Shown: piece by piece, positions 25,401 through 52,417 of the stretch
Layout: every line of letters starts with the position of its first letter
Position numbering within the stretch: the stretch's first letter is position 1
DNA from: Lysobacteraceae bacterium
Lineage (GTDB): Bacteria > Pseudomonadota > Gammaproteobacteria > Xanthomonadales > Xanthomonadaceae
Direction of reading: 5' to 3'
Assembly (NCBI GenBank): GCA_026005075.1
Contig: BPKJ01000009.1
Location: 3,435 to 67,434, forward strand
DNA length: 64,000 bases
Translations under genes and position numbers: made by a program
Notes under the pieces: model-generated
The model's database searches: none
Told to the model about the DNA's origin: nothing
Seen by the model: only the letters and a program-made list of their open reading frames with translations

Positions 25401-25483
25401 CAGCACGGCACGACCCGCCGCCGCGGCCGCTGCAGGATCCCTCGCGGTCGCGTCCTGCCGGCACTGGGGTGGCGGTCGGGCAT
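22448..25483 (-). CDS. TPR + CHAT (caspase-like C50/separase-related) domain protein with N-terminal signal-like segment
   Basis: TPR helices; CHAT motifs IHLATH (His at 22868-22870), LVVLSACETG (Cys at 22733-22735), AVVGSRWAVGD, HPTHWAGW. Confidence 0.88.
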   Translation of the reverse strand: MPDRHPSAGRTRPRGILQRPRRRVVPCWLVLALAVLPRFDPVHAACPDPPVAEVDAHQVRVERPEPGWAVIGWIRNRGAEWEVLDADRALPTWPPREGAVPVHLSAAADPVWSRAIRHAEGPDRPLPAVALSCVAEQDPAARNAARLAELAVAHARLRSGPDPLAAALLAARLFLLRAAPGLGAAEQDWVLGQLWRLAEDSHLDAEAAGWAAVLVQRARTRGPPRLLAHALLAEGRALRERDGQRALARLEEARQRFLELGMAYPATVAEHGVCLQQRLLGALEPAIACYRRVVARQLALGEAAAALYTRLNLATALSLAGRYREAGEELDRAARMPVLASQPEAHASLRRQRAQQLTWAGRFDEALALLGEVAARTDPQDTAGAARIDYLLGSTYRLAGEAGRAVVFFESAVQRLQGTSPSRQRARIRLALAQAQLDLGETEAAREQADRAMAELTRLGEVGLGERALLTLGEIHRRAGNPAAARAALSQVGVPREPRLALRARLLGAALGLTATPAIDCEASLRQVLEEGPLLLALELGEHCIRQRGREGGTDALDLAERLLDRFLPIASTLRTPALRQALLASLHRLGASVLATQAPGAVDPALGARVHHWAARLAQTQMAALAPTADDRLLALERALAAEWLAETDAPAPAGPALRLALPGAAPDPRPPAAPAHLAPDPPRLGAGVMLALPLVSEEDMGWLILDGRRWSWWPIDREAFLDARSALLTLLAEGHGDSAEIGRRAAALRAALGWERWLRPGVHTLWIGAQQALATTPLSLALPEGLHPAIGWVLGPDPRATPQPRTVRVLGVAGSPGAGLPPLHAVQAELTAVADTWAASAPVSVHSRARRTDLLEALAAPGALIHLATHARASTHRFEASGLWLAGTGDRPDFLSAQRLRGLAVNAGLVVLSACETGRGGGLFGLGVGGVAEALAEAGADAVVGSRWAVGDRAAMAFSVAFHRALARQPDAPERALAEARAELLRQPALRHPTHWAGWFVLRRAPSAG

Positions 25484-25510
25484 CGGCCTGCCGGGCGGGA
25501 AGCCGACCGG

Positions 25511-33976: not shown

Positions 33977-36542
33977 ATGCGCGGTCCGGACAAGCCGAGC
34001 GTGTCGCAAGGGCGTCTGGGCCCTGCCGTGGCGGCGATGGGGCTCGCCGCGGCCCTGCTGCTCGGGTGGCTTCATGCCCAGACCCTGCGGGATCGGGCCG
34101 ACCAGGCCCTGCAGCATCGCGCGGACCTCTACCGCGGCGCACTGCTGGAGCGGCTGCGTGCCGAGGCCGGGCTGGCCGAGGCGGTGCAGCGCATCGTGGC
34201 CAGCGAGCCGGGCCTGGGGGAGGCGGCCTTCCTGGCCCGTGTCGACGCGCTGCGGGCGGCCGGTGCCGCGACCGGGCTGCGCCGGATCTCGTGGGCTTCG
34301 CCCGCCAGGGACGGGACGGACGGCGCGGGGCAGGTGCTGGTGTATCCGGGCGCGCCCCCGGCCACGGCGGTGCAGGCGGCGCCGGCTCCTGAGGCCATGC
34401 CCCTTGCGGTTCTCGATCCGGCGGTCGCCCAGGGGCCGGCGGTCCTGCTGCTGCAGCTCCCGGCGCCGACGGGCGCCGCGTCCGGCCGCATCGAGCTCGC
34501 CTTCGACCTGCTCCCGCTGATCGACGCCGCGCTGCCGCCCAATGGGCGCGGCCGGGACTACCGCCTCGAGGTGGTCGCGCTGGGCTCGGGTGCGCCACGG
34601 CTGCTCTACCCGCAGGGCGCGCAGGCCACCCCGCTCGTCGACGCAGCGGCGGTTCCGGCGCGCAGCGATCTCGAGTTCCTCGGCCAGCTCTGGCAGGTGC
34701 GGCTGTTTCCGCAGCCGGGCTGGTATGCCGAGGGCCTGCGCGAGGCGACCGCGCTCGCCGTGCTCGGCGCGCTGCTCGCCCTGCTGCTGGGCGCGTGGAT
34801 CGCGGCCCTGCTGCGCACCCGCGAGCGCGCGCGGCGCCTGGCGCGCAGCCTCGCGGACAGGGTCCGCCAGACCGAGCAGCGCTTCCGCCGCCTGACCGAG
34901 CTGCTGCCGAGCCCGGTGCTGGTGGTCGGCGCACGAGGCGGCCGCATCCACTACGCGAACCGCGCCGCCCGGGCGCTGCTGGAGCTCGATCCCGCCGCCG
35001 ATCCTGGGCACGATCCAGCGATTTCGGCCTCGTTGCCCGAGGATCTCGCGGACAGCGGGGGCCTCGAGGAGGAACAACGCAGCGGATCGCTGCGCGCCAG
35101 GAGCGGACGTCGTTTCGATGCGGCGTGGCGCTGCGTGGCGCTGGACGAGGCCTCGGCGGAGGCCGGTTCGGAGGAGCGCTGGCTGCTGCTGCTGGAGGAC
35201 ATCAGCGAGCGCCGCCAGCTCACCGCCCAGCTTCGCTACCAGGCCAGCCACGATGCCCTGACCGGGCTGCTCAACCGGCGTGCGTTCGATGCCCTGCTGC
35301 ACCGGGCCTGCCAGAACGAGCTGCCAGGGTTCGAGCGCGCCTGGCTGCTCTACCTCGACGTCGACCAGTTCAAGCTGATCAACGACACCTGCGGTCACGC
35401 GGCGGGCGACCAGTTGCTGGCCGAGGTCGCACGGGTGCTGGGCAGCGAGGCCGGACCGGCGGCGCGGATCGCCCGTCTGGGCGGCGACGAGTTCGGCCTG
35501 CTGCTGCCGGGCGCGGATCCCGGCGGATGCCGTGCATGGGCCGAGGGCGTCGCGGCCAGGCTCGCCGGCCACCCGTTCGACTGGGAGGGGCGGCGGTTCC
35601 GCCTGACGGTGAGCATCGGCGCCGTCGCCTTCGATGCGTCGGGCCGGCCCGATCCGGCCGACCTGCTCGCCACCGCCGACACCGCCTGCTACCTCGCCAA
35701 GGAGGGCGGACGCAACCGCGTCGTCGTGCACAACGAGAACGAGCAGGCATCGCGGCAGCGGCGCAGCGAGATGGACTGGGTCCGCAAGCTGCGCGAGGCG
35801 CTGGCCGAGGACCGGCTGCTGCTGTTCCACCAGGAGCTGCGGGCCCTGCACGGGACGCCGCCTGAGGGTCCGCATTTCGAGCTGCTGCTGCGCTTGCGGC
35901 GGCGTGACGGCACGCTGGCTGCGCCGGGCGATTTCCTTCCCGCCGCCGAGCGCTACGGCGTCATGCCCGAGGTCGACCGCTGGGTGGTGCGTTGCGCCCT
36001 CGCCCACTTCGACGCCCTGCACCCGGCCGGAGCGCGGGCGGCGCTGTGCGGCATCAACCTCTCCGGCGCCACCCTCGGTGATCGCGGCTTCCCGGACTTC
36101 CTGCTCGACCGGCTGGAGCGCTCCGCGGTGGATCCCGGCCGGCTCTGCTTCGAGATCACCGAGACTGCGGCGGTGGCGGACCTGGAGCGGGCCAGGGCGC
36201 TGATCCTTCGCCTGCGTGCGCTGGGCTGCAAGGTCGCGCTCGACGACTTTCGGCGCCGGCATGTCCTCGTTCGGCTACCTCAAGAACCTGCCGATCGACC
36301 TCATCAAGATCGACGGCAGCTTCATCCGCGACATCGAGTGCGACCGCCTTTGCCAGGCGATCGTCGCCGCGATCACCCAGGTCGGCCACCAGGTCGGGGT
36401 CGAGGTGGTCGCCGAGTTCGTCGAGACGCAGGCGCAGATCGGGATCCTGCGCGGTCTGGGCGTGGATTACGCCCAGGGCTACGCGGTCCACGTGCCGGCG
36501 GTGGTGCCGGCCCACGCCGGGCGGGTGCCGGTGGCCGGCTGA
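33977..36542 (+). CDS. Membrane CHASE-like/PAS/GGDEF/EAL c-di-GMP enzyme; frameshifted at ~36249 in the EAL domain
   Basis: HDALTGLLNRR, ARLGGDEF, ELLLRL; DDFGAG loop split by an extra T; the next frame gives SSFGYLKNLPIDLIKIDGSF, VAEFVET, YAQGY. Confidence 0.85.
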
Positions 36543-38889: not shown

Positions 38890-39465
38890 TCAGCGCGCCG
38901 GCTCGCGGATCGCGATGGCCTGCACGCCGTTGGCGGCCAGGGTGGACTTGGCCTGGTCCAGCTCGCGCAGCGAGGCGAACGGGCCCAGCATCACGCGGTG
39001 CACGGTCTGCCCGCTGGCGGCGGTGGTCGGCTCGACCCGCGCCACCAGCCCAGTGAAGGCGATCGCCGCCTTGATTTCCTCCGCCCGTCGCGGGTCGCTG
39101 AAGGCGCCGGCCTGCAGGAACAGCCGCCCCGAGGGGGCCTCGGCCGGAGGTTCGCTGCGCGCGCGCGCCTTGATCTCGGCGTCGGGGATGACCACCTCGC
39201 GGCCGGGCAGGACGGTGTAGAAGTCGTACTTGGGGCGGCGGGTGTCCGGCTGGCCCTTCTGCGCCACCGGCGGCTCCGGCTCGGCCGGGCGGGGCGCGAC
39301 CGGGTTGGGCCGCGGCAGCAGCCGGGCCGGGTCGATGCCGTCGCGAACCAGCACCACCACCGCAAGGCCGAGGCCCAGCACGAGGCCGGCCAGAAGCCAG
39401 ACCCAGCCCGGGATCCGCCGCTCGCCGTGACGCCGGGCCTGGGCCTTGGGACGCCGCGCCGCCAT
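38890..39465 (-). CDS. SPOR-domain cell division protein (FtsN-like)
   Basis: TM segment, KYDFYTVLP motif, C-terminal SPOR (LQAGAF..HRVMLGPF); TGATG overlap with argS. Confidence 0.85.
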   Translation of the reverse strand: MAARRPKAQARRHGERRIPGWVWLLAGLVLGLGLAVVVLVRDGIDPARLLPRPNPVAPRPAEPEPPVAQKGQPDTRRPKYDFYTVLPGREVVIPDAEIKARARSEPPAEAPSGRLFLQAGAFSDPRRAEEIKAAIAFTGLVARVEPTTAASGQTVHRVMLGPFASLRELDQAKSTLAANGVQAIAIREPAR

Positions 39466-41225
39466 CACATGCTCTCCGGCGCCGACACGCCGAGCAGGCC
39501 AAGGCCGTTCACCAGGACCTGGCGCACGCCCGCACACAGGCCGAGCCGGGCGTTACGAAGCTCCTCGTCGTCGACCAGGATCGGCAAGGCGTTGTAGTAG
39601 GAGTGGAAGGCCGAGGCCAGTTCGCGCAGGTAGTTGGCCACGATCTGCGGGCCGCGCTGCTCGGCGGCCGCCTCGACCACCTCCGGAAAGCGCATCAGGG
39701 CATCGAGCAGGGCGGTCTCGTGCGCTTCGACCAGCCGCCCGCGCGCCGCATCGGCCGCGGTGCGGTTGTAGCTGCCATGCTTCTCGGCGAGCTGGCGGAA
39801 CAGCGCGCAGATCCGCGCATGCGCGTACTGGATGTAGTAGACGGGATTGTCGTTCGACTGGCTCTTGGCCAGTTCGAGGTCGAAGTCCAGGTGCTGGTCG
39901 TTGCTGCGCATCACGTAGAAGAAACGCGCAGCGTCGGTCCCCACCTCCTCGCGCAGCTGGCGCAGGGTGACGAAACTGCCGGCGCGCGTCGACATCTGCA
40001 CCCGCTCGCTGCCGCGGAACAGGATCGCGAACTGGACGAGGCGGATCTCGATCTTCGCCGGATCCAGCCCCAGGCCCTGGGCGGCGGCCTTGAGGCGGGC
40101 GATGTAGCCGTGGTGGTCGGCGCCGAAGATGTAGATGGCGCGGTCGAAGCCACGCTCGAACTTGGACAGCAGGTAGCCGAGGTCCGAGGCGAAGTAGGTG
40201 GTGATGCCGTTCTCGCGCCGCACCACGCGGTCCTTGTCGTCGCCGAAGTCGGTGGCGCGGAACCACAGGGCGCCGTCCTTCTCGTACAGGTGGCCCTTGG
40301 CGTCGAGGGTCTCGATGGCGCGCTGGACGTAGCCCTCGGTCAGCAGGGAGCGCTCGGAGAAGAAGTTGTCGTGCTGGACGCCGAAGGCGGCGAGGTCCTC
40401 GCGGATGTCGGCAAGGCACCATTGCAGGCCGGCCTCGAACACCTTGCGGTAGCCATCCTCGCCCAGGAGCTTGCGCGCGCGCGCGATCAGGGCGTCGATG
40501 TGGGCCTCCTTGTCGCCGCCCTCGGACTCGTCCGGCGGCAGGCCCTCGGTGATCTCGAAGGCACTCCGGCGCAGGTCGTCGCCCTCGGCCGCGCGCAGCG
40601 TGCGCGCGATCTCGATCACGTAGTCGCCCTTGTAGCCGTTGTCGGGGAAGCGCACGTTGATTCCGCCCAGCTCGTGGTAGCGCAACCAGATGCTCACCGC
40701 GAGGATGTCCATCTGCCGGCCGGCATCGTTGACGTAGTACTCGCGCTGGACCCGGTGGCCGATGGCCTGGAGCAGCGCCGCGACCGAGGCGCCGTAGGCC
40801 GCGCCGCGCCCGTGGCCTACGTGCAGCGGGCCGTTGGGATTGGCGGAGACGAACTCGACGGTCACCGACTCGCGACTGTCCGGCTCGCCGAAGCCGTAGC
40901 GGTCGCCGAGTTCGGCGATCTGCCTGAGCACGGCGAGCTTGCAGCGGCTGGCCAGACGGAAGTTGATGAAGCCGGGGCCGGCGATCTCGACCTTCTCCAC
41001 ATGCTGCGACTGCGGCAGCGTGGCGACGATCATCTCGGCCAGCTCGCGCGGCTTGTGCCCGGTGGGGCGGGCCAGCAGCAGGGCGACGTTGCAGGCGTAG
41101 TCGCCATGCTCCGGCGCGCGCGCGCGCTCGATCTGGAAATCGGGTTCGGCATCGAAGGCAAGGCGCTCGGCGCGGCGCAGGTCGAGCAGCGCCTGCAGCA
41201 CCAGTTCACGCAGATGGTCTTTCAC
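39465..41225 (-). CDS. argS: Arginyl-tRNA synthetase
   Basis: VEFVSANPNGPLHVGHGR (HIGH), YYVNDAG, GADHHGY, MSTRAG, YYIQYAHAR. Confidence 0.97.
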   Translation of the reverse strand: MKDHLRELVLQALLDLRRAERLAFDAEPDFQIERARAPEHGDYACNVALLLARPTGHKPRELAEMIVATLPQSQHVEKVEIAGPGFINFRLASRCKLAVLRQIAELGDRYGFGEPDSRESVTVEFVSANPNGPLHVGHGRGAAYGASVAALLQAIGHRVQREYYVNDAGRQMDILAVSIWLRYHELGGINVRFPDNGYKGDYVIEIARTLRAAEGDDLRRSAFEITEGLPPDESEGGDKEAHIDALIARARKLLGEDGYRKVFEAGLQWCLADIREDLAAFGVQHDNFFSERSLLTEGYVQRAIETLDAKGHLYEKDGALWFRATDFGDDKDRVVRRENGITTYFASDLGYLLSKFERGFDRAIYIFGADHHGYIARLKAAAQGLGLDPAKIEIRLVQFAILFRGSERVQMSTRAGSFVTLRQLREEVGTDAARFFYVMRSNDQHLDFDLELAKSQSNDNPVYYIQYAHARICALFRQLAEKHGSYNRTAADAARGRLVEAHETALLDALMRFPEVVEAAAEQRGPQIVANYLRELASAFHSYYNALPILVDDEELRNARLGLCAGVRQVLVNGLGLLGVSAPESM

Positions 41226-41300
41226 GGGGGCGGGTTTCCAGGGCAGAGCCGCCCATTGTAACGCCGCGACGATGGGAGCCGCCGGTCGCGCCGGTTACCG

Positions 41301-41334
41301 CTGTCACCGGACCGCAAGAATCGCGGCCTACCCT
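41301..41334 (+). promoter_or_regulatory. Pho-box-like site plus -10 upstream of the TonB/ExbBD operon
   Basis: CTGTCAC-CGGA-CCGCAAG followed 10 bp later by TACCCT; near-identical copy at 49495. Confidence 0.55.
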
Positions 41335-41382
41335 CTCGGGCTTCCGGATCCGGCAGCCGGGTCCGTGTTCGAGGACGTCACC

Positions 41383-42159
41383 ATGGGTCGCAGCGAAGGG
41401 ACGAGGAGGCCGCGCCTCCAGCCCGCAATCCTTCTTCTGGTCCTGCTCTCGACGGCCGCGGCCGCCCAGCCGGAGCTGGGCGAGCGGCTGGTCGCCCTGC
41501 GCGGCGAGGTCGAGCGGCTCGACAGCGAGCTGGTGCTGCTGCGCGAGGAGCAGCGCACCCTGCTGGCCGGGCTCAACGCCCAGCGCGCCGAACTCGAGGC
41601 CAGCCTCGACCGCCAGCGGCGGCTGACCCGGGACCTGGCCGCCCGCCGTGCCGCCGCCGAGGACGCGGCCGCCCAGCGCGAGCAGGCCGGGCAGGCGCTG
41701 CGGCCGGTGCTCGAGGCCGCCATCGACCGTGAGGCCGCGCGGATCCGCGGCGGGTTGCCGTTCAAGGTCGAGGAGCGCGTGGCGGCCCTGGAGGAGATCC
41801 GGCGGCAGATGGCGGACGGCACGCTGAGCCCCGGCCGGGCGGCCAGCCGTCTCTGGGCCTTCTTCGAGGACGAGCTCCGCGGCGCGCGCGAGGTCGCCCT
41901 GCACAGCCAGACCGTGGTGCTGGGCGGGGAGCGGGTGCTGGCCGATGTGGTCAAGGTCGGCAGCATGGCGCTGTACTTCCGTACCCCGGACGGGCGCTTC
42001 GGCCAGGCCGTGCGCGGCAGGGACGGGTGGGACTACCGGCTGGCCGAGGATGCATCGTTCCGCGCCCCGGTCGCGGCCCTGTTCGACGCGCTGCGCAAGC
42101 AGATCCGCCGCGGCTGGTTCCAGCTTCCCCAGCTCGCGGCGGCGGAGGGGCAGCCATGA
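41383..42159 (+). CDS. DUF3450-family periplasmic coiled-coil protein (TtpB-like)
   Basis: Signal peptide, coiled coil, LPFKVEER, ALYFRTPDG; first gene of an exbB/exbD/tonB cluster. Confidence 0.78.
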   Translation: MGRSEGTRRPRLQPAILLLVLLSTAAAAQPELGERLVALRGEVERLDSELVLLREEQRTLLAGLNAQRAELEASLDRQRRLTRDLAARRAAAEDAAAQREQAGQALRPVLEAAIDREAARIRGGLPFKVEERVAALEEIRRQMADGTLSPGRAASRLWAFFEDELRGAREVALHSQTVVLGGERVLADVVKVGSMALYFRTPDGRFGQAVRGRDGWDYRLAEDASFRAPVAALFDALRKQIRRGWFQLPQLAAAEGQP

Positions 42160-43544
42160 GCGCACGCCTTGCCCTGCTTCTGGCCCTGTTCCTTGCCCGG
42201 CTGCCCATGCCGCTGGCCGCGGAAACGGGGGCCGCGGACGAGGACGCCGGGGCGGGTGCGCCCCGGGTGCGGGTCGAGGATGCCTTCCGCCGCGAGTTCG
42301 CCCTGCTCGAAACCCAGAAGCGCGAGCTCACGCAGCAGATCGAGCAGACCCGCGCGGCGATGGCGGCCGAGCGGCGCAGGCTGGAGGCCGAGATCGGCCG
42401 CCTCGAGGCCGGGCTGCTCGCCGCGCAGTCGGAAGCGGCCAGCGCACAGGAGGCCCTGACCCGTGCCGAGCAGCAGGCCGTCGCGGGCGCCGACGCCGGC
42501 GACCTCATCGGCGCCACGCTCGAGCAGGCGGCCTCGACCCTGCGCGGACTCGGTCTTGCCCTGCCGTCCGTGGAAGCCATCGACGAGGAGGCCGTGCCGG
42601 CCCGGCTGCAAGCGATTCTGGTCAGGGCCGGGGACCTGCTGGCCGCGCTCGCCACGGTGCAGCAGGAGCCGGGCCGCTACTACCTCGCCGACGGCACCGA
42701 GGTCGAGGGCACGCTGATCCGCTACGGCGACGTCGCCCGTTTCGCCGTGGGACAGGCCGGCAGCGGCGCGCTGGCGCCCGCGGGGGGCGGTCGCTTCCGT
42801 CTGCTCGCCGAGCCGGACGCGGCGGCGAGCGCGCAGGCGCTGGCCGGCGGCACGGTCCCGCCGGTCCTGAAGGCCTTCCTCTTCGACAACCCGAACGTGG
42901 CGGTGGAGGAGCCTGCCGCGCGTTCGCTGCTCGACGAGCTGCGCAAGGGCGGGCTGATCGGCTACGTGATCCTGCTGCTGGGCGCGGTGGCGGCGGTGCT
43001 GGTGGTGCTGCGCGCGGTGTTCCTGCACAGCGCAGGCTCTTCCGTCGCGGCCATCCTCGAGGCGATCACCCCGGCCATCCGCCAGCGCCGTACCGACGAG
43101 GCCATCGCGCAGGCCAAGCGCTTCAAGGGCTCGGCCGCGCGCGTGGTGACCGCGGCCCTGCGCAACGCCGACCGTGACCGCGAGCACCTCGAGGACATCG
43201 TCGCCGAATCGATCCTGCACGAGTCGGGCCGCCTCAACCGGTTCGGCAGCCTGATCACGGTGATCGCCGCGGTGGCGCCCCTGCTCGGTCTGCTGGGTAC
43301 GGTGACCGGGATGATCCAGACCTTCGAGGTCATCACCGAGTTCGGCACCTCCGATCCGAAGCTGCTCTCCGGCGGCATCGCCACCGCGCTGGTCACCACC
43401 GAGCTGGGCCTGATCGTGGCCATCCCCTGCCTGTTGCTCGGCAGCCTGCTGGCCGGCTGGGCGGAGCGGATCAAGGACGACATGGAGAAGGCAGCCCTGC
43501 GCGCCATCAACCTGCACATGGCCAGCCGGACCCAGGGGGCCTGA
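42156..43544 (+). CDS. MotA/TolQ/ExbB family protein with long periplasmic N-terminal extension (TtpC-like)
   Basis: Signal peptide + coiled coil, then APLLGLLGTVTGMIQTF, SGGIATALVTTELGL. Confidence 0.88.
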   Translation: MSARLALLLALFLARLPMPLAAETGAADEDAGAGAPRVRVEDAFRREFALLETQKRELTQQIEQTRAAMAAERRRLEAEIGRLEAGLLAAQSEAASAQEALTRAEQQAVAGADAGDLIGATLEQAASTLRGLGLALPSVEAIDEEAVPARLQAILVRAGDLLAALATVQQEPGRYYLADGTEVEGTLIRYGDVARFAVGQAGSGALAPAGGGRFRLLAEPDAAASAQALAGGTVPPVLKAFLFDNPNVAVEEPAARSLLDELRKGGLIGYVILLLGAVAAVLVVLRAVFLHSAGSSVAAILEAITPAIRQRRTDEAIAQAKRFKGSAARVVTAALRNADRDREHLEDIVAESILHESGRLNRFGSLITVIAAVAPLLGLLGTVTGMIQTFEVITEFGTSDPKLLSGGIATALVTTELGLIVAIPCLLLGSLLAGWAERIKDDMEKAALRAINLHMASRTQGA

Positions 43545-43570
43545 GGCGCATGGGCTGGGACAGGCGTGGC

Positions 43571-44198
43571 ATGAACGCGTTCACCGAGCCCGGCGCCGGC
43601 CTGCTCGACCAGCTTGGCGCCTACCTCGCCAGCGGCGGCTACGTGACCGTGCCGCTGCTGCTGGTCGCCACGGCGCTCTGGTATGCGCTCGGCGTGCGCT
43701 GGGCCCTGCTCCAGCGCGGCAGCAAGAAGAATGTCCGCGTGCTCCTGCGCCGCCATGTCGAAGGCCGCGCCGGCAAGGTTCGCGGCGTCACCGGGCGCGC
43801 GATCGAGCTCGGGCTGGCGCTGCGCGCGCGCGGGGTGAGCCCGCTGCGGCGGCACCTCGACGATGCCTTCGCCGAGTTCGAGCAGGACCTCGGCCGCCAC
43901 GCCCGCACCGTCACCGCCCTGGTCGCGGTGGCGCCGCTGCTGGGCTTGCTCGGCACCGTGGCCGGGATGATCGAGACCTTCGCGTCGCTGGGCGAGATGA
44001 GCCTGTTCTCGCAGACCGGCGGCATCGCCGGTGGCATCGCCACCGCCCTGTTCACGACCCAGCTTGGACTGGTGGTCGCGGTGCCTGGCTACGTCTGCAA
44101 GGCCCTGCTCGACCGCCGCCAGCAAGCAGATCGCGATGGACCTCGCAAGGATCAAGGACCTCCTGGTCAGCGAGCCGCCCCCCGAATCGGAGTCCTGA
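43571..44198 (+). CDS. exbB: ExbB proton channel protein; +1 frameshift at ~44123 near the C-terminus
   Basis: APLLGLLGTVAGMIETF, GGIATALFTTQLGL; removing C44123 gives KQIAMDLARIKDLL..TGA 44196-44198, just before exbD. Confidence 0.85.
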
Positions 44199-44202
44199 GC
44201 CC

Positions 44203-44616
44203 ATGCTGCGCCGTCGTCCGCAAGCCTCCGCCGAGACCGGTGTCGATCTCACCCCGATGATCGACATGACCTTCATCCTGCTGATCTTCTTCATGGTCTC
44301 GACCACCTTCGTCAAGGACCTCGAAGTCGACCTCGAGCGTCCGGGCGCGCAGAGCGCCACCAAGGCTTCGGGGCAGGCGATCCGGGTCTACATCGACCGC
44401 AAGGGCGAGACCTATCTCGACGGCCAGCCGGTACGCAGCTGGGTGATCCAGAGTCGCCTGCGTGATCTGCTCGGGACCTCGACCCGCAAGGCGGTGCTGG
44501 TGGTCGCCGACGCCGCGGTGCCCGCCCAGCAGTTGATCGACGTGGTCGATGCCGCGCGCCTTGCCGGGGCCGAGGACGTCGGCGTGGCCACCGTGGCCGA
44601 GGCGGGGGAGGGCTGA
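44203..44616 (+). CDS. exbD: ExbD/TolR family biopolymer transport protein
   Basis: DLTPMIDMTFILLIFFMVSTTF, VVADAAVP..LIDVVD. Confidence 0.93.
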   Translation: MLRRRPQASAETGVDLTPMIDMTFILLIFFMVSTTFVKDLEVDLERPGAQSATKASGQAIRVYIDRKGETYLDGQPVRSWVIQSRLRDLLGTSTRKAVLVVADAAVPAQQLIDVVDAARLAGAEDVGVATVAEAGEG

Positions 44617-44619
44617 GCC

Positions 44620-45249
44620 ATGACGCCCTTGCGCAGGGCTCGCCGGGCAGGCGTGGTCAGCGCCGTGCTCGGTCTTGCGCTGGTGCTGGGCCTGGTGCTG
44701 GCCATGAACGTCGGTCTCAAGCGGCCCGCGGCGGACGCCGGCAAGCCGGCAAGCCGCATCGAGGTGGTGCGCAAGCCGCCGCCGCCGAGCGGGCCGGTGC
44801 GTCCGCCTGCGCCGCCGCCGCGGCCGGTGCCGCGTCTTGCACCGCCGCCGATGGTGGGGCTCGGGGGCGGCCTGCCCGGCCTCGATTTCGGCGGCGCGCC
44901 CACCGGGCTCGGCGAGCTCGATCTCGACCAGGGCCAGTCGGACCCGGACGCCGACCTGGTCATGACCGAGGACGTGGTCGATGTGCCACCGCGCGCCGTG
45001 GTCCGACCGCCCATGCCCTACCCGTCGCGGGCGCGGGCGCAGGGCATCACCGGGCACGTCGTGCTTGGGGTGCTGGTCGGCGCCGATGGCAAGGTGGAGA
45101 AGGTGCGGGTGCTGGAATCGCAACCCAGCGGCGTGTTCGACGAGGTCGCCAGCGCCGGCGTGCAGGCCTGGAAGTTCGAGCCGGCGCAGTACCGGGGCCG
45201 GAACGTGCGCGTCTGGGTCCGGCAGAAGGTGAGGTTCGACCTGTCATGA
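44620..45249 (+). CDS. tonB: Energy transducer TonB
   Basis: N-terminal TM, Pro-rich linker, YPSRARAQGITGHV, WKFEPA. Confidence 0.9.
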   Translation: MTPLRRARRAGVVSAVLGLALVLGLVLAMNVGLKRPAADAGKPASRIEVVRKPPPPSGPVRPPAPPPRPVPRLAPPPMVGLGGGLPGLDFGGAPTGLGELDLDQGQSDPDADLVMTEDVVDVPPRAVVRPPMPYPSRARAQGITGHVVLGVLVGADGKVEKVRVLESQPSGVFDEVASAGVQAWKFEPAQYRGRNVRVWVRQKVRFDLS

Positions 45250-46406
45250 GGCCTACCCGTGCGATGCCCCTGCTCGCGGGCCTGGTCCTGGCGCTGCTGC
45301 TCCTCGCGCCGGTCCTCGCCGCCACGGATGCGGTCGAACTCGACCACCTCGCCCTCGCCGCGCGCCTCGTCGCCGATGGCGAGTACGCGCGCGCGGAGCG
45401 GGTGCTGGGCCAGGTCGACCCGCAGGAGGAGGGGCTGGATCTTGCGAGCTACCACACCCTGCGCGCCCGGGTGGCGCAGGAGCGCGGTCGGCAGGACGAG
45501 GCGGCCCAGGCCTATGAGGCGGCCTTGGCGCACGGTGCGGGCGGCTCGGTGCGGCTGCGTCTTGCGCAGGTGCTGATCGAGCTCGGGCGCCATCGGCAGG
45601 CGCTGGATGTCCTCGGCAAGGCCGGGCCCGACCTCGACGAGGCGGTGGCCACCTGGCTGTTGCGCGCCCATGCACAGTGGAAGCTCGGGCGGATGCAGGC
45701 GGCGATGGACACCCTGGACGAGGCCGCCGCCCGGTTTCCGCAGGAGCCTGGGTTCCGGCGTCGCCAGGTGCTGTACCTGATCGAGGTCGGGCTGTACCGG
45801 GAGGCCGCCGAGCGTGGACGGCAGCTGCTGCAAGGGTCCGGCGCGCGCGCCGCCGACTACGCGGCCCTGGGTACCGCGCTGCGTCGCGCCGGTGCGGTGC
45901 GCGAAGCGTTGGCCCTGCTCGAGGCCGGGCGTCTTGCGCATCCGCAGGATGCCGCGATCGTCAAGGCGCTGGCGCAGGCCTGGCTCGATCACGGTGCTCC
46001 GCTCGCCGCCGCCAGCCTGCTGGCCGGGCAGGCCAGCCTCCATCCCGAGCTGTATGCCGAGGCCGCCGAGCTGTTCCGCCGGGCCGGCCATCCACGGCGG
46101 GCGCTGATCCTCAACGCCAGGGTGCCGGATCCCGTGCGCAAGCTTCGCCAGCGGGTCGGCCTCCTGCTCGCGCTCGGGCACTACGACGCGCTGGTCGGCC
46201 TCGAGCGCGCGCTGCACCGTGCCGGGCTGCTCGAGGATCAGGAAATCCGCTACGCCCTTGCCTACGCCCAGTACCGCGCCGGGGCCTTCGCCGAAGCCGA
46301 GCGCCACCTGGTGCCGATCTCCCGCCCCGACCTGTTCCGCAAGGCCACCGAACTGCGCCGCCTGATGCAGGAATGCGCCGATCGGCGCTGGGCCTGCAGC
46401 GGATGA
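45246..46406 (+). CDS. Periplasmic TPR protein (TtpD-like)
   Basis: Signal peptide then tandem TPR-like helices; overlaps tonB stop and TBDR start. Confidence 0.8.
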   Translation: MRPTRAMPLLAGLVLALLLLAPVLAATDAVELDHLALAARLVADGEYARAERVLGQVDPQEEGLDLASYHTLRARVAQERGRQDEAAQAYEAALAHGAGGSVRLRLAQVLIELGRHRQALDVLGKAGPDLDEAVATWLLRAHAQWKLGRMQAAMDTLDEAAARFPQEPGFRRRQVLYLIEVGLYREAAERGRQLLQGSGARAADYAALGTALRRAGAVREALALLEAGRLAHPQDAAIVKALAQAWLDHGAPLAAASLLAGQASLHPELYAEAAELFRRAGHPRRALILNARVPDPVRKLRQRVGLLLALGHYDALVGLERALHRAGLLEDQEIRYALAYAQYRAGAFAEAERHLVPISRPDLFRKATELRRLMQECADRRWACSG

Positions 46407-49400
46407 AACGAGACCGACCCGCCATGCGCAACCTGTTGTCGCTGCTTTTTTTGCTGCTGCCCGTGGGGGCGGTGCTTGCCGCCGACCCCGCGCGGCTGGC
46501 CGTGTACGTCTTCGACGGCGATCGCCCGGTCGAGGGCGTGGCGCTGCGCGCCAGTGGCACCGAGCTGGGCAGGACCAGTACGGACGGCGCCCTGCACCGC
46601 ACGATCGCCCCCGGTGAGCACCGGATCCAGCTCCTGCGCGGGGAAGATGAGCTGGCGACCCTGCCCTTGTCCCTGCAGGAAGGCGAGGACGCCCAGCTCA
46701 TCGTCGTGCTGCGTGCCGGCGCGGCACCGCGGCTCCTGCTGGAGAGCTCCCACCGCGCCCCGCGCACGCTGGAGGCGGCGGCGCCGGCCGGTCCGCCAGG
46801 CCGGCTCGCGGGGCGGATCGTCAGTGCCGAGGACGGCCGTGCGGTGGCGGGGGCGCGCGTCTACGTCGCCGGCACCCCGCTCGACCTGCGCACCGACGCC
46901 GAGGGGCGTTTCGAGGTCGAGCTCGCCGCCGGGAGCCATGCGATCTCGATCCTCGCGCCGGGCTTTTCCAGCCAGACCATCGAGGCGGTCGAGGTGCCTG
47001 CCGGCGAGGAAAAGCGGATCGCCATCGAGCTCACCCCCGCGGGCGTCGAGATGCCGGAGTTCGTGGTCATCCAGCCCTTCGTCGAGGGCTCGCTGGCCGC
47101 CTTCGCCGAGGAGCGCCGCACCAGCTCCGCGGTCGCCGACCTGCTCGGCGCCGAGCAGATCTCGCGCGCGGGGGACTCCGATGCCGCCGGTGCGCTCAAG
47201 CGGGTCACCGGTCTGACCCTGGTCGACGGGCGTTTCGTCTACGTGCGCGGCCTGGGGGAGCGCTATGCCTCGGTGCTGCTCAACGGTGCCCAGGTGCCGA
47301 GCCCCGACCCGACCCGCCGGGTGGTGCCGCTCGACCTCTTCCCGGCCGACATCCTGCAGGGCATCGTCGTGCAGAAGACCTTCAGCGCCGACCTGCCCGG
47401 CGAGTTCGGCGGCGGCACCATCCAGCTGCGCACCCGCGGCATCCCGGAGGGCTTCGTGCTCAAGGCCGGGCTGGGTCTGGGCCACGCCGCCGGAACCACC
47501 GGCGAGCAGGGTCTGGGCTATGCCGGCGGGAACCGCGACTGGACCGGCTTCGACGATGGCAGCCGGGCCGCGCCTCCGGGTCTGCTCGGCCCGGCCCTGC
47601 CCAGCGATCCGGCGGCCCTGGAGGCGCTGGGCGAGGAACTGGCCGGCCGCGGCTTCGGGGTCCGTCGGCGCACGCTTGGCCCCGGATCCAGCGGCTCGTT
47701 CGCGCTGGGCGACGTGTTCGAGGCCGAGGCGGGCTGGAGCCTTGGCTACCTTGCCAGCCTGCGCCACAGCCAGAGCTGGGACCACCGCACCGAGCAGCGC
47801 GCCGCCTTCAGCGTGCTCGGCAACGGCCAGCTCATCCCGCTGACCCGCTTCGAGCGGCAACGTACCGAACGTTCCATCGATGCCGGGGCCTTCCTGGCCA
47901 CCGGCCTGAAGCTGGGCGAGGACCACGAGATCAGCGCAACCGCCTTCGAGGTCAGGCAGACGGTCGACGAGACCCGCATCGACGAGGGCGTGCTCGGCTC
48001 CGGCAACCTCGAACGGCAGTTTCTGCTGCAGTGGACCGAGAACGAGCTGTTCGCGACCCAGCTCGGCGGACACCATGCCCTCCGCGGCGAGGACGGACCG
48101 CGCATCGCCTGGCAAATCACCGACTCGCGGGCGCGCCGGCAGGCGCCTTTCGCGCGCGAGTACGGCTTTTCCTACGACGAGGGCTTCGACGCGTTCTTCT
48201 ACAACGGCCAGAACCTGATCCGTTACGAAAACCTGGTCGACGATGCGCGCCAGTGGCGGCTCGACCTCGAGTGGCCATGGCGGATGGGCGAGACCGCGAC
48301 GCTGACGCTGCAAGCCGGGCTCGACCGTCTCGACCGGTCGCGCCGATCGAGCATCGACCGTTTCGCCTACCGCGGCGGTCGCGTCCGCGATGCGACCTCG
48401 ATCGACGAGGTGCTGCAGCCCGGGCTGATCGGGCCCGATCCGCGTCAGCTGCGGCTGCAGCGATCCACGCAGCCGACCGATGCCTACACGGCAGGGCAGC
48501 GCCTCGACGCGCGCTACCTTGGCGCCGACCTCAGGCTCGACCGCTGGCGCTTCGTGCTCGGCCTGCGCGAGGAGCACAACGACCAGGAGGTGCGCACCCG
48601 GCCCCTGTTCGCCGGCCCGGAGGTCGCGCCCGTGGTCGGTCGCGTGCAGGCCACCGACCGCCTGCCCTCGGCCGCCATCACCCGCAGCCTGGGCGAGAAC
48701 GCGCAGCTCCGGCTTGGTCTGGCAAGAACGGTGTCGAGGCCGGACTTCCGCGAACTCTCCGAGGCGCCCTTCATCGACCCCCAGCTCGACATCCGCGTGC
48801 AGGGCAACCCCGAGCTGCTGCCGGCCGCGATCCGTCACCTCGACCTGCGCTGGGAGTACTACTTCAGCGCCACCGAAAGCCTTTCCCTGGCGTGGTTTCG
48901 CAAGGATTTCGACCACCCCATCGAGCTGGTCCGGGTGCCTGCCTCCGGCGAGCTCCTGGGCATTCGCAATGCCGAGGCCGCCCGCAACCGGGGCATCGAG
49001 ATCGATCTCTATGCCTCGATGGGCAAGCTCGGGAAGCTGCCCTGGCTGCCCCGCTGGATGCAGGGCCTGCCGTGGGACCAGTTCTGGCTTGGCGGCAACT
49101 ACGCGCGCATCGACTCCGAAATCGATCTCGGCAGCAGCCGCGGCACCCAGACCAGCGCCCGGCGACCCTTGCAGGGCCAGTCTCCGTATGTCGGCAACCT
49201 CAGCCTGTCGTGGCTGCATCCGCAGGGCGACTTCGAGGCCACGCTGCTCTACAACGTGTTCGGTCCGCGCATCGCCCAGGTCGGCGACAGCGGCGTGCCG
49301 GATGTCTACGAGCAGCCGTTCGGGCAGCTCGACTTCACCTTCACGCGGCGGCTCGCGCCGGGCTGGAGCATGAAGCTGCGTCTGCGCAACCTGCTCGACC

Positions 49401-49489
49401 CCGAGCAGCGCTACCAGGTGGGCGACGCGATCACGCGGCGCTTCCACAAGGGCCGCGAGGTCCAGCTCGCCCTCGAGTGGCGGCGCTGA
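46403..49489 (+). CDS. TonB-dependent receptor with N-terminal carboxypeptidase-regulatory-like domains
   Basis: Signal peptide (alt start 46424), GRLAGRIV..RVYVAG, plug (ALKRVTG, VRGLGERY, FPADILQGIVVQKTF), NLLDP and C-terminal aromatic residue. Confidence 0.9.
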   Translation: MKRDRPAMRNLLSLLFLLLPVGAVLAADPARLAVYVFDGDRPVEGVALRASGTELGRTSTDGALHRTIAPGEHRIQLLRGEDELATLPLSLQEGEDAQLIVVLRAGAAPRLLLESSHRAPRTLEAAAPAGPPGRLAGRIVSAEDGRAVAGARVYVAGTPLDLRTDAEGRFEVELAAGSHAISILAPGFSSQTIEAVEVPAGEEKRIAIELTPAGVEMPEFVVIQPFVEGSLAAFAEERRTSSAVADLLGAEQISRAGDSDAAGALKRVTGLTLVDGRFVYVRGLGERYASVLLNGAQVPSPDPTRRVVPLDLFPADILQGIVVQKTFSADLPGEFGGGTIQLRTRGIPEGFVLKAGLGLGHAAGTTGEQGLGYAGGNRDWTGFDDGSRAAPPGLLGPALPSDPAALEALGEELAGRGFGVRRRTLGPGSSGSFALGDVFEAEAGWSLGYLASLRHSQSWDHRTEQRAAFSVLGNGQLIPLTRFERQRTERSIDAGAFLATGLKLGEDHEISATAFEVRQTVDETRIDEGVLGSGNLERQFLLQWTENELFATQLGGHHALRGEDGPRIAWQITDSRARRQAPFAREYGFSYDEGFDAFFYNGQNLIRYENLVDDARQWRLDLEWPWRMGETATLTLQAGLDRLDRSRRSSIDRFAYRGGRVRDATSIDEVLQPGLIGPDPRQLRLQRSTQPTDAYTAGQRLDARYLGADLRLDRWRFVLGLREEHNDQEVRTRPLFAGPEVAPVVGRVQATDRLPSAAITRSLGENAQLRLGLARTVSRPDFRELSEAPFIDPQLDIRVQGNPELLPAAIRHLDLRWEYYFSATESLSLAWFRKDFDHPIELVRVPASGELLGIRNAEAARNRGIEIDLYASMGKLGKLPWLPRWMQGLPWDQFWLGGNYARIDSEIDLGSSRGTQTSARRPLQGQSPYVGNLSLSWLHPQGDFEATLLYNVFGPRIAQVGDSGVPDVYEQPFGQLDFTFTRRLAPGWSMKLRLRNLLDPEQRYQVGDAITRRFHKGREVQLALEWRR

Positions 49490-49494
49490 GCCGC

Positions 49495-49529
49495 CTGTCA
49501 CCGAACCGCAATCCCGCTGCCTTCAACCT
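49495..49529 (+). promoter_or_regulatory. Second Pho-box-like site plus -10 upstream of the secreted beta-helix gene
   Basis: CTGTCAC-CGAA-CCGCAAT then CAACCT 11 bp later; 16/17 identity with 41301-41317. Confidence 0.55.
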
Positions 49530-49605
49530 GCAAGACCCGACCACTAGCTTGGTCGCGTGCCGGGGCTTGCACCGGCGCGATTCCTTCCACGTGCAGAGGT
49601 ATCCC

Positions 49606-51303
49606 ATGTCCATGCTTCGCAAGTCGCTGCTGGCGGCTTCCTGTGCCCTTGGCCTCGCCGGCCCGGCGGCCGCCATCCATGTCAACGAGTCCTTCGACGG
49701 CGCCTGGGTCGACCCCTCCGCGGCCGGCAACCAGAAGGGCCTGATGGTGGACTACATCCCGTCGGCGAACACCTTCTTCTTCGCCTTCTTCACCTACGAC
49801 GCGGCGGGCGAGCAGCTGTGGACGGTGGGGTCCTTCCAGCCCGAGGACGGTCTGCGCGAATACACGGTGCCGGTGAGCGTGGTCACCGGCGGTCGCTTCA
49901 GCGAGGAGGGCACACCTTCCGAGGCTCCGATCGGCACCGCCCTCGTCCGCCTCGGCTGCGACGCCATCGACCTCGATTTCACGCCCGGCGAGGGCGTCCC
50001 GCTGACCGCGGCCAGCTACCGGTTCCAGCCCAGTCTCGGCCTCGATCGCCTCACCGCGGGCGAGTGCAGCAGCCCCGCCGACCAGTGCCCCGCCGGCACC
50101 ACGCCCGAGGGCGAGCGGTGCGCCCTGCCGTCCAGCATCCCTGGCAACCTGGTCCTGACCGCGGGCAAGGACTATGTCGTCAATGGCCGGGTCACGGTCG
50201 AGGCCGGAGGCAAGCTGAGCATCGCTCCGGGGGTGACGGTGATCGGTGGCGGTTCGGCGACCGCACCCAACTTCATCGTGGTCAAGGCGGGCGGCCAGAT
50301 CTACGCCAACGGCACCCGCGAGCAGCCTATCACCTTCACCGGGCCCGAGCCGGTACCCGGATCCTGGGCCGGGCTGGTGATCGCCGGGCGCTCCATCTGC
50401 AACGACGCCACCCCGACCCAGCCCTGCCAGTTCGAGGCGGTGCCCGACATCACCTACGGCTCGGCCACCGATCCGGTGCTGGAGGATAGCTCCGGCGTGC
50501 TGCGCTACGTGCGCATCCTCTGGGCCGGCCAGCAGATCGCACCGGACGAGGAGCTCAATGGGCTCACCCTGCTGGCGGTGGGCAGCGGCACGGTGCTCGA
50601 GCACGTGCAGGTCGACGGTGGCCTGGACGACGGGTTCGAGCTGTTCGGCGGCACCGTCAACGGCCGCTATCTGGTCTGCTCGAACATGGGCGACGACTGT
50701 TTCGACTTCGACCAGGGCTATCGCGGCAAGCTCCAGTTCGGTCTTGGCTGGCAGGGCAGCAATCCGGACCAGACCTCGGATTCGAACGGTTTCGAGACCG
50801 ACAACGACAGCAACAACAACGACAAGCAGCCGCGCACCGAACCGATGGTGGCCAACTTCACCATGGTCGGCCGCCCCTCCGGGACCCGCGACGGCATGCG
50901 CATCCGCCGCGGCGCCGGCGGGCATTACGTCAACATGGTGGTGACCGGCTACACCCGGCGCTGCCTCAACCTCGACGATGCCGGCACCTTCGCGCTGGGG
51001 ACCGGCACACAGCAGGGCGAGCGGCTGACCATGACCCACAGCTTCATGGGCAGCTGCACGGGCGGCACCTTCGACGACGCCGCGGGCGACCCGTACCCGG
51101 TGTCCGCCTGGTACGCGGCCGGTGCCGGCAACCAGAGCGGTGATCCGGTGCTGGACGGCTTCCTTCCGGCCGCAGGCTCGCCGGTGCTCGAGGGCGGTGG
51201 CGTGCTGGCCGACGGGTTCTTCCAGCCCACCACCTACCGGGGTGCCTTCGGGCCGGGCGAGAACTGGACCAAGGACTGGACGGTCAACCTGCCGGGACAG
51301 TAG
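49606..51303 (+). CDS. Secreted protein: N-terminal beta-rich domain + Cys linker + right-handed beta-helix-like domain
   Basis: Signal peptide MSMLRK..GPAAA; ITFTG, SGVLRYVRILWAG, ELNGLTLLAVGSGT, DDGFELFGG, GDDCFDFDQG, YRGAF..NWTKDW motifs typical of TBDR-associated beta-helix proteins. Confidence 0.8.
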   Translation: MSMLRKSLLAASCALGLAGPAAAIHVNESFDGAWVDPSAAGNQKGLMVDYIPSANTFFFAFFTYDAAGEQLWTVGSFQPEDGLREYTVPVSVVTGGRFSEEGTPSEAPIGTALVRLGCDAIDLDFTPGEGVPLTAASYRFQPSLGLDRLTAGECSSPADQCPAGTTPEGERCALPSSIPGNLVLTAGKDYVVNGRVTVEAGGKLSIAPGVTVIGGGSATAPNFIVVKAGGQIYANGTREQPITFTGPEPVPGSWAGLVIAGRSICNDATPTQPCQFEAVPDITYGSATDPVLEDSSGVLRYVRILWAGQQIAPDEELNGLTLLAVGSGTVLEHVQVDGGLDDGFELFGGTVNGRYLVCSNMGDDCFDFDQGYRGKLQFGLGWQGSNPDQTSDSNGFETDNDSNNNDKQPRTEPMVANFTMVGRPSGTRDGMRIRRGAGGHYVNMVVTGYTRRCLNLDDAGTFALGTGTQQGERLTMTHSFMGSCTGGTFDDAAGDPYPVSAWYAAGAGNQSGDPVLDGFLPAAGSPVLEGGGVLADGFFQPTTYRGAFGPGENWTKDWTVNLPGQ

Positions 51304-51364: not shown

Positions 51365-52417
51365 TCAATGCGCCAGGGAGAGGGCCGAGAACGCCTCGAC
51401 CACGGTCTGGCCGCTCGCGGGCCCCTGCTCCCGGAACCGCTCGCGCAGCCCGCGAGTTACCTGCCGCAGGCGTTCGGCGTTCTCGGCCTTGCTCGCGGCG
51501 AAGGTGGTCCGGCCGGGTTCCGAGCAGAACCGGTGGAGCTCGAAGAAATAGAACTCCTGCCCGTGGGTCAGGAATTCGAGGCAGGGCTGGGCCGACTGCG
51601 CGGCGTCCAGCGAACGCCCCGAGCGCATCTCGCGCTCCTGGCACAGCCGGCTGGCGCTCTCGGCGAGCCAGAAGAAAGCCTCGCCGACGTTGGCGGTGTC
51701 GAGGTCGGAAGCCAACTGCGCCAGCGCGACGCCATGGACCGCGTCGGCATCCTCCCGCCAGCCTGGAACCTCGCGATCCAGCACCTGCGGCAGATGGGGC
51801 GCCAGCGCACCGGCGGTGGCGGCCAGCTCCGCTGTGTTGTACTCGGACGGAGGCGGGGCGGGTCTCGGGTCGAAGGTCGAGCCGGCGATCATCAGGTCCA
51901 GCACCGTGAACAGGCGCCGGTCGCGGTGGCGGTCGAAGCCGGAGAGGGCGAGGATCCTGCGGGTCTCGCAGATGCTCGCCGCCTCGTTGTTGCCGATCGG
52001 ATGGGAAAAGTCCACCGCCTCCCGCTGGCGCAGGTCATGGCAGGTGGCAAACAGCGAAAGCGCAAGCCAGTCGAACAGCGGCAGGCTTTCCAGGCCGCAG
52101 CGTTCCATCATCCGGCCGAGCCGGCCGTCGAGGATCTCCAGCGCGTGGTTCTCGTTGTGGTAGTGGTGGAAGTCATCGCCCCAGCTGCCATGGCGCATGC
52201 CCATGCGGGCGAGGCTGATCATCAGCGCCGTCTCGGTGCGCTCGAGCAGGTCCTGCTCGGCCTCCGCAAAACCCGACAGGAAGATCCGCCTGCGCTCGCC
52301 GAGCAGCTCCAGGAAATCCGGGCGGCAGTCACGCAGCAGGCGCTCTGCAGTCGGGCGGTCGGCCACGGCCCGTTCCACGCCGTCGGCGGCAAACTGCTTG
52401 TGCAGTGGCAGGAACAT
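51365..52417 (-). CDS. Uncharacterised HD-superfamily metal-dependent phosphohydrolase
   Basis: YHNENH, CHD and SDLDTAN motifs in the order expected for HD-domain metal ligands. Confidence 0.65.
   Translation of the reverse strand: MFLPLHKQFAADGVERAVADRPTAERLLRDCRPDFLELLGERRRIFLSGFAEAEQDLLERTETALMISLARMGMRHGSWGDDFHHYHNENHALEILDGRLGRMMERCGLESLPLFDWLALSLFATCHDLRQREAVDFSHPIGNNEAASICETRRILALSGFDRHRDRRLFTVLDLMIAGSTFDPRPAPPPSEYNTAELAATAGALAPHLPQVLDREVPGWREDADAVHGVALAQLASDLDTANVGEAFFWLAESASRLCQEREMRSGRSLDAAQSAQPCLEFLTHGQEFYFFELHRFCSEPGRTTFAASKAENAERLRQVTRGLRERFREQGPASGQTVVEAFSALSLAH

Follow-up and report, generated by a model that had tools for sequence, protein, structure and literature searches.

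Introduction

The response regulator PhoB binds 7-bp direct repeats related to CTGTCAT that recur with an 11-bp period. In the Pho promoters of Escherichia coli (pstS, phoA, phoB, and ugpB), such repeats form an 18-bp box that lies 10 nt before the -10 hexamer and replaces the -35 element; pstS carries boxes in tandem. Here we analyze two putative Pho boxes in a 64,000-nt stretch of DNA (72.5% GC) from Lysobacteraceae bacterium, referred to below, at its full length, as the window. One box (promoter 1) precedes a seven-gene operon that starts with a DUF3450 gene and ends with the gene for a TonB-dependent receptor (TBDR), and the other (promoter 2) precedes a gene for a predicted secreted beta-helix protein (BH). 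Based on sequence comparison, we put the probability that both motifs are Pho boxes, that is, binding sites of phosphorylated PhoB, at roughly 85%. That Pho boxes have this form is textbook biology; the interesting part is the gene cluster that they precede.

Several described systems are close to this cluster. The Vibrio TonB2 system, encoded by ttpB2-ttpC2-exbB2-exbD2-tonB2-ttpD2, carries a Fur box and is switched on when iron is scarce (PMC6957404). In Flavobacterium johnsoniae, Fjoh_0545 encodes a TonB-dependent transporter and Fjoh_0546 a pectin-lyase-fold lipoprotein; both genes belong to the region of the phoBR operon, and their expression rises by log2 fold changes of 8-10 on depletion of inorganic phosphate (Pi) (PMC8115612). 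In Bacteroides thetaiotaomicron, BT4055 and BT4056 encode a receptor and a putative beta-helix "lid" lipoprotein, a pair conserved in 621 genera, and a preprint by Price and Arkin reports that BT4056 is homologous to ElpS (bioRxiv 10.1101/2023.03.17.533168). ElpS (CC0170) of Caulobacter crescentus is a secreted protein of ~50 kDa that is made under phosphate starvation and whose gene adjoins a TBDR gene (PMC2996285). PhoB also controls TonB-dependent receptors in Caulobacter (PMC11208175).

Results

Both promoters carry phased PhoB-type repeats at a conserved distance from a predicted -10 hexamer

Promoter 1 is situated in the intergenic region between the divergent genes argS (39465-41225, minus strand) and DUF3450, where the first site stands 65 nt from the ATG at 41383. 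Its 18-bp box (41301-41318, plus strand) consists of half-site 1, CTGTCAC (41301-41307), a CGGA spacer, and half-site 2, CCGCAAG (41312-41318), which match CTGTCAT at six and three of seven positions, respectively. The predicted -10 hexamer TACCCT (41329-41334, plus strand) follows 10 nt past the box without a -35 element, and the predicted transcription start lies near 41341. An alignment of 12 orthologous DUF3450 promoters (A2) showed no variation in TGTCA of half-site 1, in G.AA of half-site 2, or in T-A-n-n-n-T at the TACCCT column (12/12). These promoters keep CTGTCAT, a spacer of AAAA, and (C/G)CGCAA(T/C), followed by 10 nt and TAnnnT; the half-site 2 form is exact or one base off in 11 of them. 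An earlier note on this DNA, made from its letters alone, had described the second half-site as degenerate and TACCCT as a -10-like hexamer. Both descriptions are supported, with the qualification that the degenerate half-site is itself conserved, since its form is kept in the orthologues.

Promoter 2 is more elaborate. The second site begins 6 nt past the stop codon of the receptor gene (49487-49489) and leaves 94 nt to the ATG of the BH gene at 49606. Four in-phase half-sites, or two Pho boxes, occupy 49495-49534 on the plus strand: CTGTCAC, CCGCAAT, CTGCCTT, and CTGCAAG, separated by cgaa, cccg, and caac. The 17-mer singled out in the earlier note is part of the strong distal box (49495-49512). 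Ten nucleotides past half-site 4 lies the predicted -10 hexamer TAGCTT (49545-49550, plus strand), with a predicted start near 49557. An alignment of 13 BH promoters (A1), gap-free over its first 66 columns, revealed invariant TGTCA in half-site 1, G and A in half-site 2, G in half-site 3, G.AA in half-site 4, and T-A-n-n-n-T, of which T61, A62, and T66 (13/13) correspond to TAGCTT in the window. Several orthologous BH promoters are near-canonical, namely those of L007 (CTGTCACTAAACTGTCAT), L002 and L015 (CTGTCACCAAACGGTCAT), and L024 (CTGTCATGGGGCGGTCAT), and half-site 2 in these orthologues often reads canonical CTGTCAT or CGGTCAT.

A natural AA>GG variant at 49525-49526 was found in a same-species strain from a wastewater metagenome (X3; >99% identical); it changes the spacer that separates half-site 3 from half-site 4 and turns CAACCT into CGGCCT. 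The half-sites and both -10 hexamers were identical in all metagenome runs covering them, which were four runs for promoter 1 and three for the whole of promoter 2; the half-site array of promoter 2 did not differ in any of four metagenome variants.

Two features that the earlier note had assigned to promoter 2 need revision. A layout of only two half-sites, which describes promoter 1 correctly, falls short here, where four are in phase. CAACCT (49524-49529), named there as the second -10-like hexamer, overlaps the spacer and the start of half-site 4, is not conserved, and is CGGCCT in strain X3; we rejected it in favor of the invariant TAGCTT, with which alone the box-to-hexamer spacing is the same as at promoter 1.

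At both promoters, the box is thus followed by 10 nt and an invariant TAnnnT without a -35 element, which is the class-II position, and a generic scan detected no sigma-70 -35/-10 pair at either. Like the E. coli Pho promoters, they combine CTGTCAT-type repeats of 11-bp period with an 18-bp box that replaces the -35 element 10 nt before the -10 hexamer, and the tandem boxes of promoter 2 resemble those of pstS. They differ from the E. coli promoters in their GC-rich spacers, in a half-site 2 of the form (C/G)CGCAA(T/C), in a -10 hexamer that is merely TAnnnT (TACCCT and TAGCTT), and in target genes that are not classical Pho regulon members.

At 49557-49585 on the plus strand, where the BH mRNA is predicted to begin, there is a GC-rich hairpin (GCGTGCCGG-loop-CCGGCGCG). 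Orthologues have a hairpin of different sequence at the same place in the BH leader, with weak covariation support.

Near-identity of the two 17-mers is coincidental

The resemblance that first drew attention to the two sites is that of CTGTCACCGGACCGCAA (41301-41317) and CTGTCACCGAACCGCAA (49495-49511). On re-reading, the sequences, their positions, and their match at 16 of 17 positions all proved exact. The earlier note had described the sites as two near-identical Pho-box-like operators that define a coordinated regulon; compared with the rest of the window, the near-identity lost its weight. The window contains 263 distinct pairs of 17-mers in direct orientation that differ at no more than one position, compared with 119-159 in Markov-1 random sequences, and because such pairs are so abundant, the 16/17 identity is uninformative by itself. 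It is also lineage-specific: L024, the closest relative, has boxes that match each other at just 11 of 18 positions. We therefore rejected it as evidence for function: it is coincidental, carries no statistical weight, and gives no sign of a special shared operator. The 17-mer pattern with up to three mismatches occurs three times in the window against 0.42 expected.

The abundance of one-mismatch pairs in this GC-rich DNA, together with the finding that the flanks of the two copies have no similarity to each other, could also mean that the 17-mers resemble each other by chance, or are left over from a small repeated or mobile element, and play no regulatory role. We consider this exceedingly improbable. 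The same position, orientation, and TAnnnT spacing recur, with diverged flanks, in 12-13 aligned orthologous loci and in a Pseudoalteromonas cluster, and the window contains no further copies. What stands above chance at the two sites is their position, orientation, and conservation.

Motif scoring points to PhoB as the probable regulator of both promoters

To score the sites, we built a position matrix from orthologue sites only, leaving the window out. The two best matches in the window were the site at 49495 (25.7 bits) and that at 41301 (18.6 bits), followed by one of 11.5 bits; the matrix scan found no further strong boxes in the window. A training-free score, in which matches to CTGTCAT are summed across four in-phase half-sites with an 11-bp period, ranked 49495 as the best of ~128,000 window positions (19/28). 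This second score was used for the AT-rich DNA of Pseudoalteromonas, for which the matrix is unsuited owing to its small training set. On the chromid of a Pseudoalteromonas that also has the cluster, the DUF3450 and beta-helix promoters outscored all others among ~38,600 positions.

The connection to PhoB comes from genes found next to the motif in other genomes. Among the 29 loci (L001-L029) that encode orthologues of the 565-aa BH and were examined here, four (L019, L020, L022, and L029) have phoB directly after the BH gene, followed by phoR. In L019, the products score above the family cutoffs (PhoB, TIGR02154 equivalog, 347 bits against a cutoff of 296; PhoR, TIGR02966, 387 against 334). 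In all four, phoBR is preceded by CTGTCACACGACTGTCAT or a one-base variant of it (beginning with TTGTCAC in L020 and ending with CGGTCAT in L022), and by its sequence this boxed promoter of the sister genomes is the classical autoregulated phoBR promoter, as in E. coli. Stand-alone TBDR genes, which lack upstream TonB genes, carry their own box followed by 10 nt and TATCGT.

In a Lysobacteraceae metagenome-assembled genome (L003, 11926-14341), a canonical box, CTGTCACATGACTGTCAC, stands directly after the BH gene and is followed by an operon that includes a small open reading frame and a gene for OlsF, a bifunctional ornithine-lipid synthase (741 bits). Ornithine-lipid synthesis by OlsF serves to spare phospholipid, and the arrangement suggests Pho-controlled remodeling of membrane lipids in this clade.

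The earlier note had proposed a motif scan as a check on the PhoB assignment. Run across other genomes, on an independent set of phoB loci (902 kb) from diverse, unrelated Proteobacteria, it returned 47 matrix matches above 20 bits, of which ~22 lie directly upstream of phoB; the enterobacterial phoB box is among these. Nearly all other matches are directly upstream of genes for PBP_like_2 proteins (PstS-type, seven confirmed), Porin_O_P, polyphosphate kinase (ppk), and a PstC/A-type permease. In a Pseudomonas phoB promoter, the second half-site reads CTGCAAT.

These results bear on the possibility that another regulator of the OmpR/PhoB family binds repeats of the type CTGTCA-N5-CCGCAA, in response to a signal other than phosphate (for instance iron, envelope stress, or a particular substrate). 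The CCGCAA half-site departs from CTGTCAT and is nevertheless conserved in the DUF3450 promoters, and winged-helix regulators of this family generally use direct repeats of 10-11 bp. TonB systems, moreover, are classically iron-regulated (PMC6957404). That another regulator is responsible nonetheless appears quite unlikely to us, because, in unrelated genomes, the motif model built here also detects the promoters of phoB, pstS-type, porin O/P, and ppk genes, because the motif stands at the phoBR promoter directly beside the BH gene in sister genera, and because the second half-site is often canonical in orthologues and is CTGCAAT at a Pseudomonas phoB promoter. Nor does the operon promoter have a Fur box: across 41226-41382, even the closest match to the 19-bp consensus differs from it at 11 positions, and Fur control of the operon was rejected for this reason.

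Several points weigh against PhoB as the regulator of both promoters. The promoter families under judgment also supplied the sites used to train the matrix, which leaves phoBR, OlsF, the stand-alone TBDR genes, and the 902-kb set as the only independent tests. The link from motif to PhoB rests on relatives, as the phoB and pstS promoters of the source organism itself lie outside the window, and a search of metagenome runs for RNA data on this organism gave DNA runs only. The DUF3450 box is weak by the classical E. coli consensus (9/14), a crude measure on which several window positions score as well or better; judged by sequence, this box is supported by conservation and not by its match to the consensus. 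With the matrix, the proximal box of promoter 2 stays under 9 bits, and the spacers are GC-rich (CGGA and CGAA) rather than A/T-rich. Finally, paralogues within the OmpR/PhoB family can recognize similar direct repeats.

Promoter 1 precedes a TonB2-type energizer and receptor operon

The first gene downstream of promoter 1 encodes a TtpB-like DUF3450 protein of 258 aa with a signal peptide (41383-42159; PF11932, E = 9e-27) and is preceded by a GAGGA ribosome-binding site (41371-41375). It is followed, all on the plus strand, by genes for a TtpC-like long MotA/TolQ/ExbB protein of 462 aa (42156-43544; PF01618, E = 4e-29), whose start overlaps the previous stop codon as ATGA, for ExbB (43550-44260; PF01618, E = 1.5e-22), ExbD (44203-44616; PF02472, E = 1.8e-26), and TonB (44620-45249; TonB_C, PF03544, E = 2e-20), and for a TtpD-like TPR protein (45246-46406; TPR families, E down to 5.6e-13), whose start again forms an ATGA overlap, with the tonB stop codon. 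The seventh gene (46424-49489) encodes the TBDR, a protein of 1021 aa comprising an N-terminal extension, CarboxypepD_reg, plug, and barrel (PF13620, PF13715, PF07715, and PF14905, the last being OMP_b-brl_3); its score against NCBIfam TIGR01782 is below the cutoff. The receptor gene starts 18 nt past the TPR stop codon, with no separate promoter. The two ATGA overlaps and this short gap indicate that the seven genes form one operon (41383-49489).

The first six genes are those of the Vibrio TonB2 system in the same order, and the inclusion of a receptor gene recalls the Vibrio TonB3 operon. Unlike the Vibrio TonB2 genes, the cluster has a Pho box in place of a Fur box, and receptor and beta-helix genes are appended. 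The receptor has the same Pfam set as Fjoh_0545 (CarbopepD_reg, Plug, and OMP_b-brl_3) and is likewise followed by a pectin-lyase-fold protein; in the four loci with phoBR beside the BH gene, the pair adjoins phoBR as it does in F. johnsoniae. What sets the pair in the window apart from Fjoh_0545/0546 and BT4055/4056 is that it is joined to a dedicated TonB2-type energizer operon.

The arrangement of argS and DUF3450 through TBDR and BH is complete in ~15 Lysobacteraceae loci. Cultured bacteria that carry the cluster include Aquimonas voraii DSM 16957, Chiayiivirga flava DSM 24163, and Pseudomarimonas salicorniae. The entire cluster was also found on a chromid of Pseudoalteromonas sp. CF6-2 of the Alteromonadales (L111; NZ_CP091443, 2044-13031), where the beta-helix gene, which encodes two modules in 933 aa, comes before the receptor gene and a siderophore cluster adjoins. 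Both promoters of L111 have phased TTGTCAT/CTGTCAT arrays, and conservation of the motif thus spans two orders of Gammaproteobacteria.

Promoter 2 probably acts as an internal promoter

A generic scan detected no terminator between the receptor and beta-helix genes and none after the beta-helix gene. The two units are probably co-transcribed, given the absence of a terminator between them, and by sequence the second box has the look of an internal promoter that boosts expression, not of a regulon member in its own right. The inference of the earlier note that both units are induced by phosphate starvation is supported by the conserved phased repeats, their spacing, the occurrence of the motif at Pho genes elsewhere, the lack of a Fur box, and the published response of such receptor and beta-helix pairs to Pi depletion in Flavobacterium and Caulobacter. 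Its picture of two units is weakened, in that they are adjacent with no terminator to divide them.

The same context would allow both sites to be real PhoB sites with only the first a working promoter, so that the second would serve as a roadblock or low-affinity sink and BH would be made by read-through only. The box just 6 nt past the receptor stop codon and the weakness of the proximal box of promoter 2 are compatible with such a role, as is the missing terminator. An array with TAnnnT is, however, also kept before the BH gene where the receptor gene does not precede it, as in L002, L003, L007, L009, L011, and the L019-L022 group. Because the four-half-site array persists without a preceding receptor gene, it can act as an independent, autonomous promoter, and we regard expression of BH by read-through alone as very unlikely.

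BH probably belongs to a large family of receptor-adjacent beta-helix proteins

BH (565 aa; 49606-51303, plus strand) is predicted to be secreted and falls in the precomputed family PF28492. Its AlphaFold2 model (pLDDT 88.3) comprises a signal peptide, an eight-stranded lipocalin-like barrel (residues ~30-142), and a right-handed beta-helix (residues ~165-480). Foldseek matched the model to nitrophorins, and also to NosD, AlgE4, tailspikes, and Pel9A, the latter matches being weak (E ~4e-3 to 2e-2) but consistent with a beta-helix. Searches of local Pfam and NCBIfam gave no match, and no PDB relative was found by sequence. A profile search (E <= 1e-3) returned 15,327 family representatives at 50% identity; among the matches listed, many relatives have 2-6 tandem beta-helix modules.

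The BH N-terminus reads MSMLRKSLLAASCALGLAGPAAA followed by IHV. Cys13 comes after A-A-S, which does not make a canonical lipobox, stands at a very early position, and is not invariant in the alignment; an Ala-x-Ala site for signal peptidase I fits better.

A BH-type gene adjoins a TBDR gene in the window, in most of L001-L029, in Pseudoalteromonas L111, and in Parabacteroides (L110). The Parabacteroides protein, encoded directly after a CarbopepD_reg-type TBDR, is 33% identical to BH (E = 2e-56). BH thus probably belongs to the receptor-adjacent beta-helix family represented by ElpS, BT4056, and Fjoh_0546, three proteins with which it was compared by description only. Like ElpS, it is secreted by prediction and its gene adjoins a TBDR gene. 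ElpS is a lipoprotein released through a neighboring type II secretion system, and no genes for such a system were found near the cluster in the window. BH also differs from Fjoh_0546 and BT4056, having a signal peptide that looks ordinary, without a clear lipobox, and an additional N-terminal lipocalin-like barrel.

The convergent neighbor of the BH gene (51365-52417, minus strand), found in at least 10 loci, encodes a cytoplasmic protein of 350 aa with an H…HD-like motif (HHYHNENHA…CHDLRQ). This protein has no Pfam, NCBIfam, or PDB match, and there is no Pho box upstream of its gene.

Genomic surroundings

The neighbors of the cluster are housekeeping genes (SPOR protein, argS, radC, coaBC, and pgm), and the window contains no other Pho genes. 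Pseudomarimonas salicorniae and an uncultured "Lysobacter" stand closest to the organism by protein identity (81-82%); the organism itself occurs in hot-spring and wastewater metagenomes. Two further genes in the window deserve mention. A PAS-GGDEF-EAL gene (33977-36539, plus strand) changes frame near 36250 inside the EAL domain, with positions 29-157 of the EAL model in the frame from 33977 and positions 153-233 in that of 36204-36539, and is either a frameshifted pseudogene or an assembly error. At 22451-25510 (minus strand), a gene adjoining the aconitase gene encodes a TPR and CHAT-domain protein of 1020 aa.

Discussion

The anatomy of the two promoters and its conservation, the gene content of the cluster, and the association of the motif with Pho genes across genomes are consistent with the following course of events. 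When external phosphate is low, PhoR would phosphorylate PhoB, and dimers of phosphorylated PhoB would bind head-to-tail on the 11-bp CTGTCAY-type repeats, taking the place of the missing -35 element. We infer that bound PhoB would then recruit sigma-70 RNA polymerase to the weak TAnnnT hexamer 10 nt downstream, with one dimer at promoter 1 and two at promoter 2, where filling of the weak proximal box would probably be cooperative. Promoter 1 would drive the seven-gene operon, that is, the six-gene TonB2-type energizer and the CarboxypepD_reg-type receptor, and promoter 2, as an internal promoter, would probably add to read-through and raise the level of BH.

Together, the genes of the cluster may constitute an outer-membrane uptake system, inducible by phosphate starvation, for some phosphorus-containing substrate, in which BH would be an extracellular or surface partner of the receptor. 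To our knowledge, the TonB2 architecture is otherwise known only from iron uptake. At slightly less than even odds, we tentatively propose that the cluster is a self-contained Pi-starvation importer consisting of a TonB2-type motor, a receptor, and a lipocalin-plus-beta-helix capture protein, that it is one unit from Lysobacterales to Alteromonadales whose core is the same as that of the Bacteroidota and Caulobacter pairs, and that within it the TonB2 architecture has been rewired from Fur to PhoB.

Our analysis would assign a phosphate-starvation signal to a widespread cluster of TonB2 energizer, receptor, and beta-helix genes and would place a six-gene TonB2 architecture under Pho rather than Fur control. 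It would also connect observations on ElpS of Caulobacter, Fjoh_0545/0546 of Flavobacterium, and the Bacteroides "lids" with a version from Proteobacteria that comes with its own motor, and the substrate of its receptor would bear on how bacteria scavenge phosphorus.

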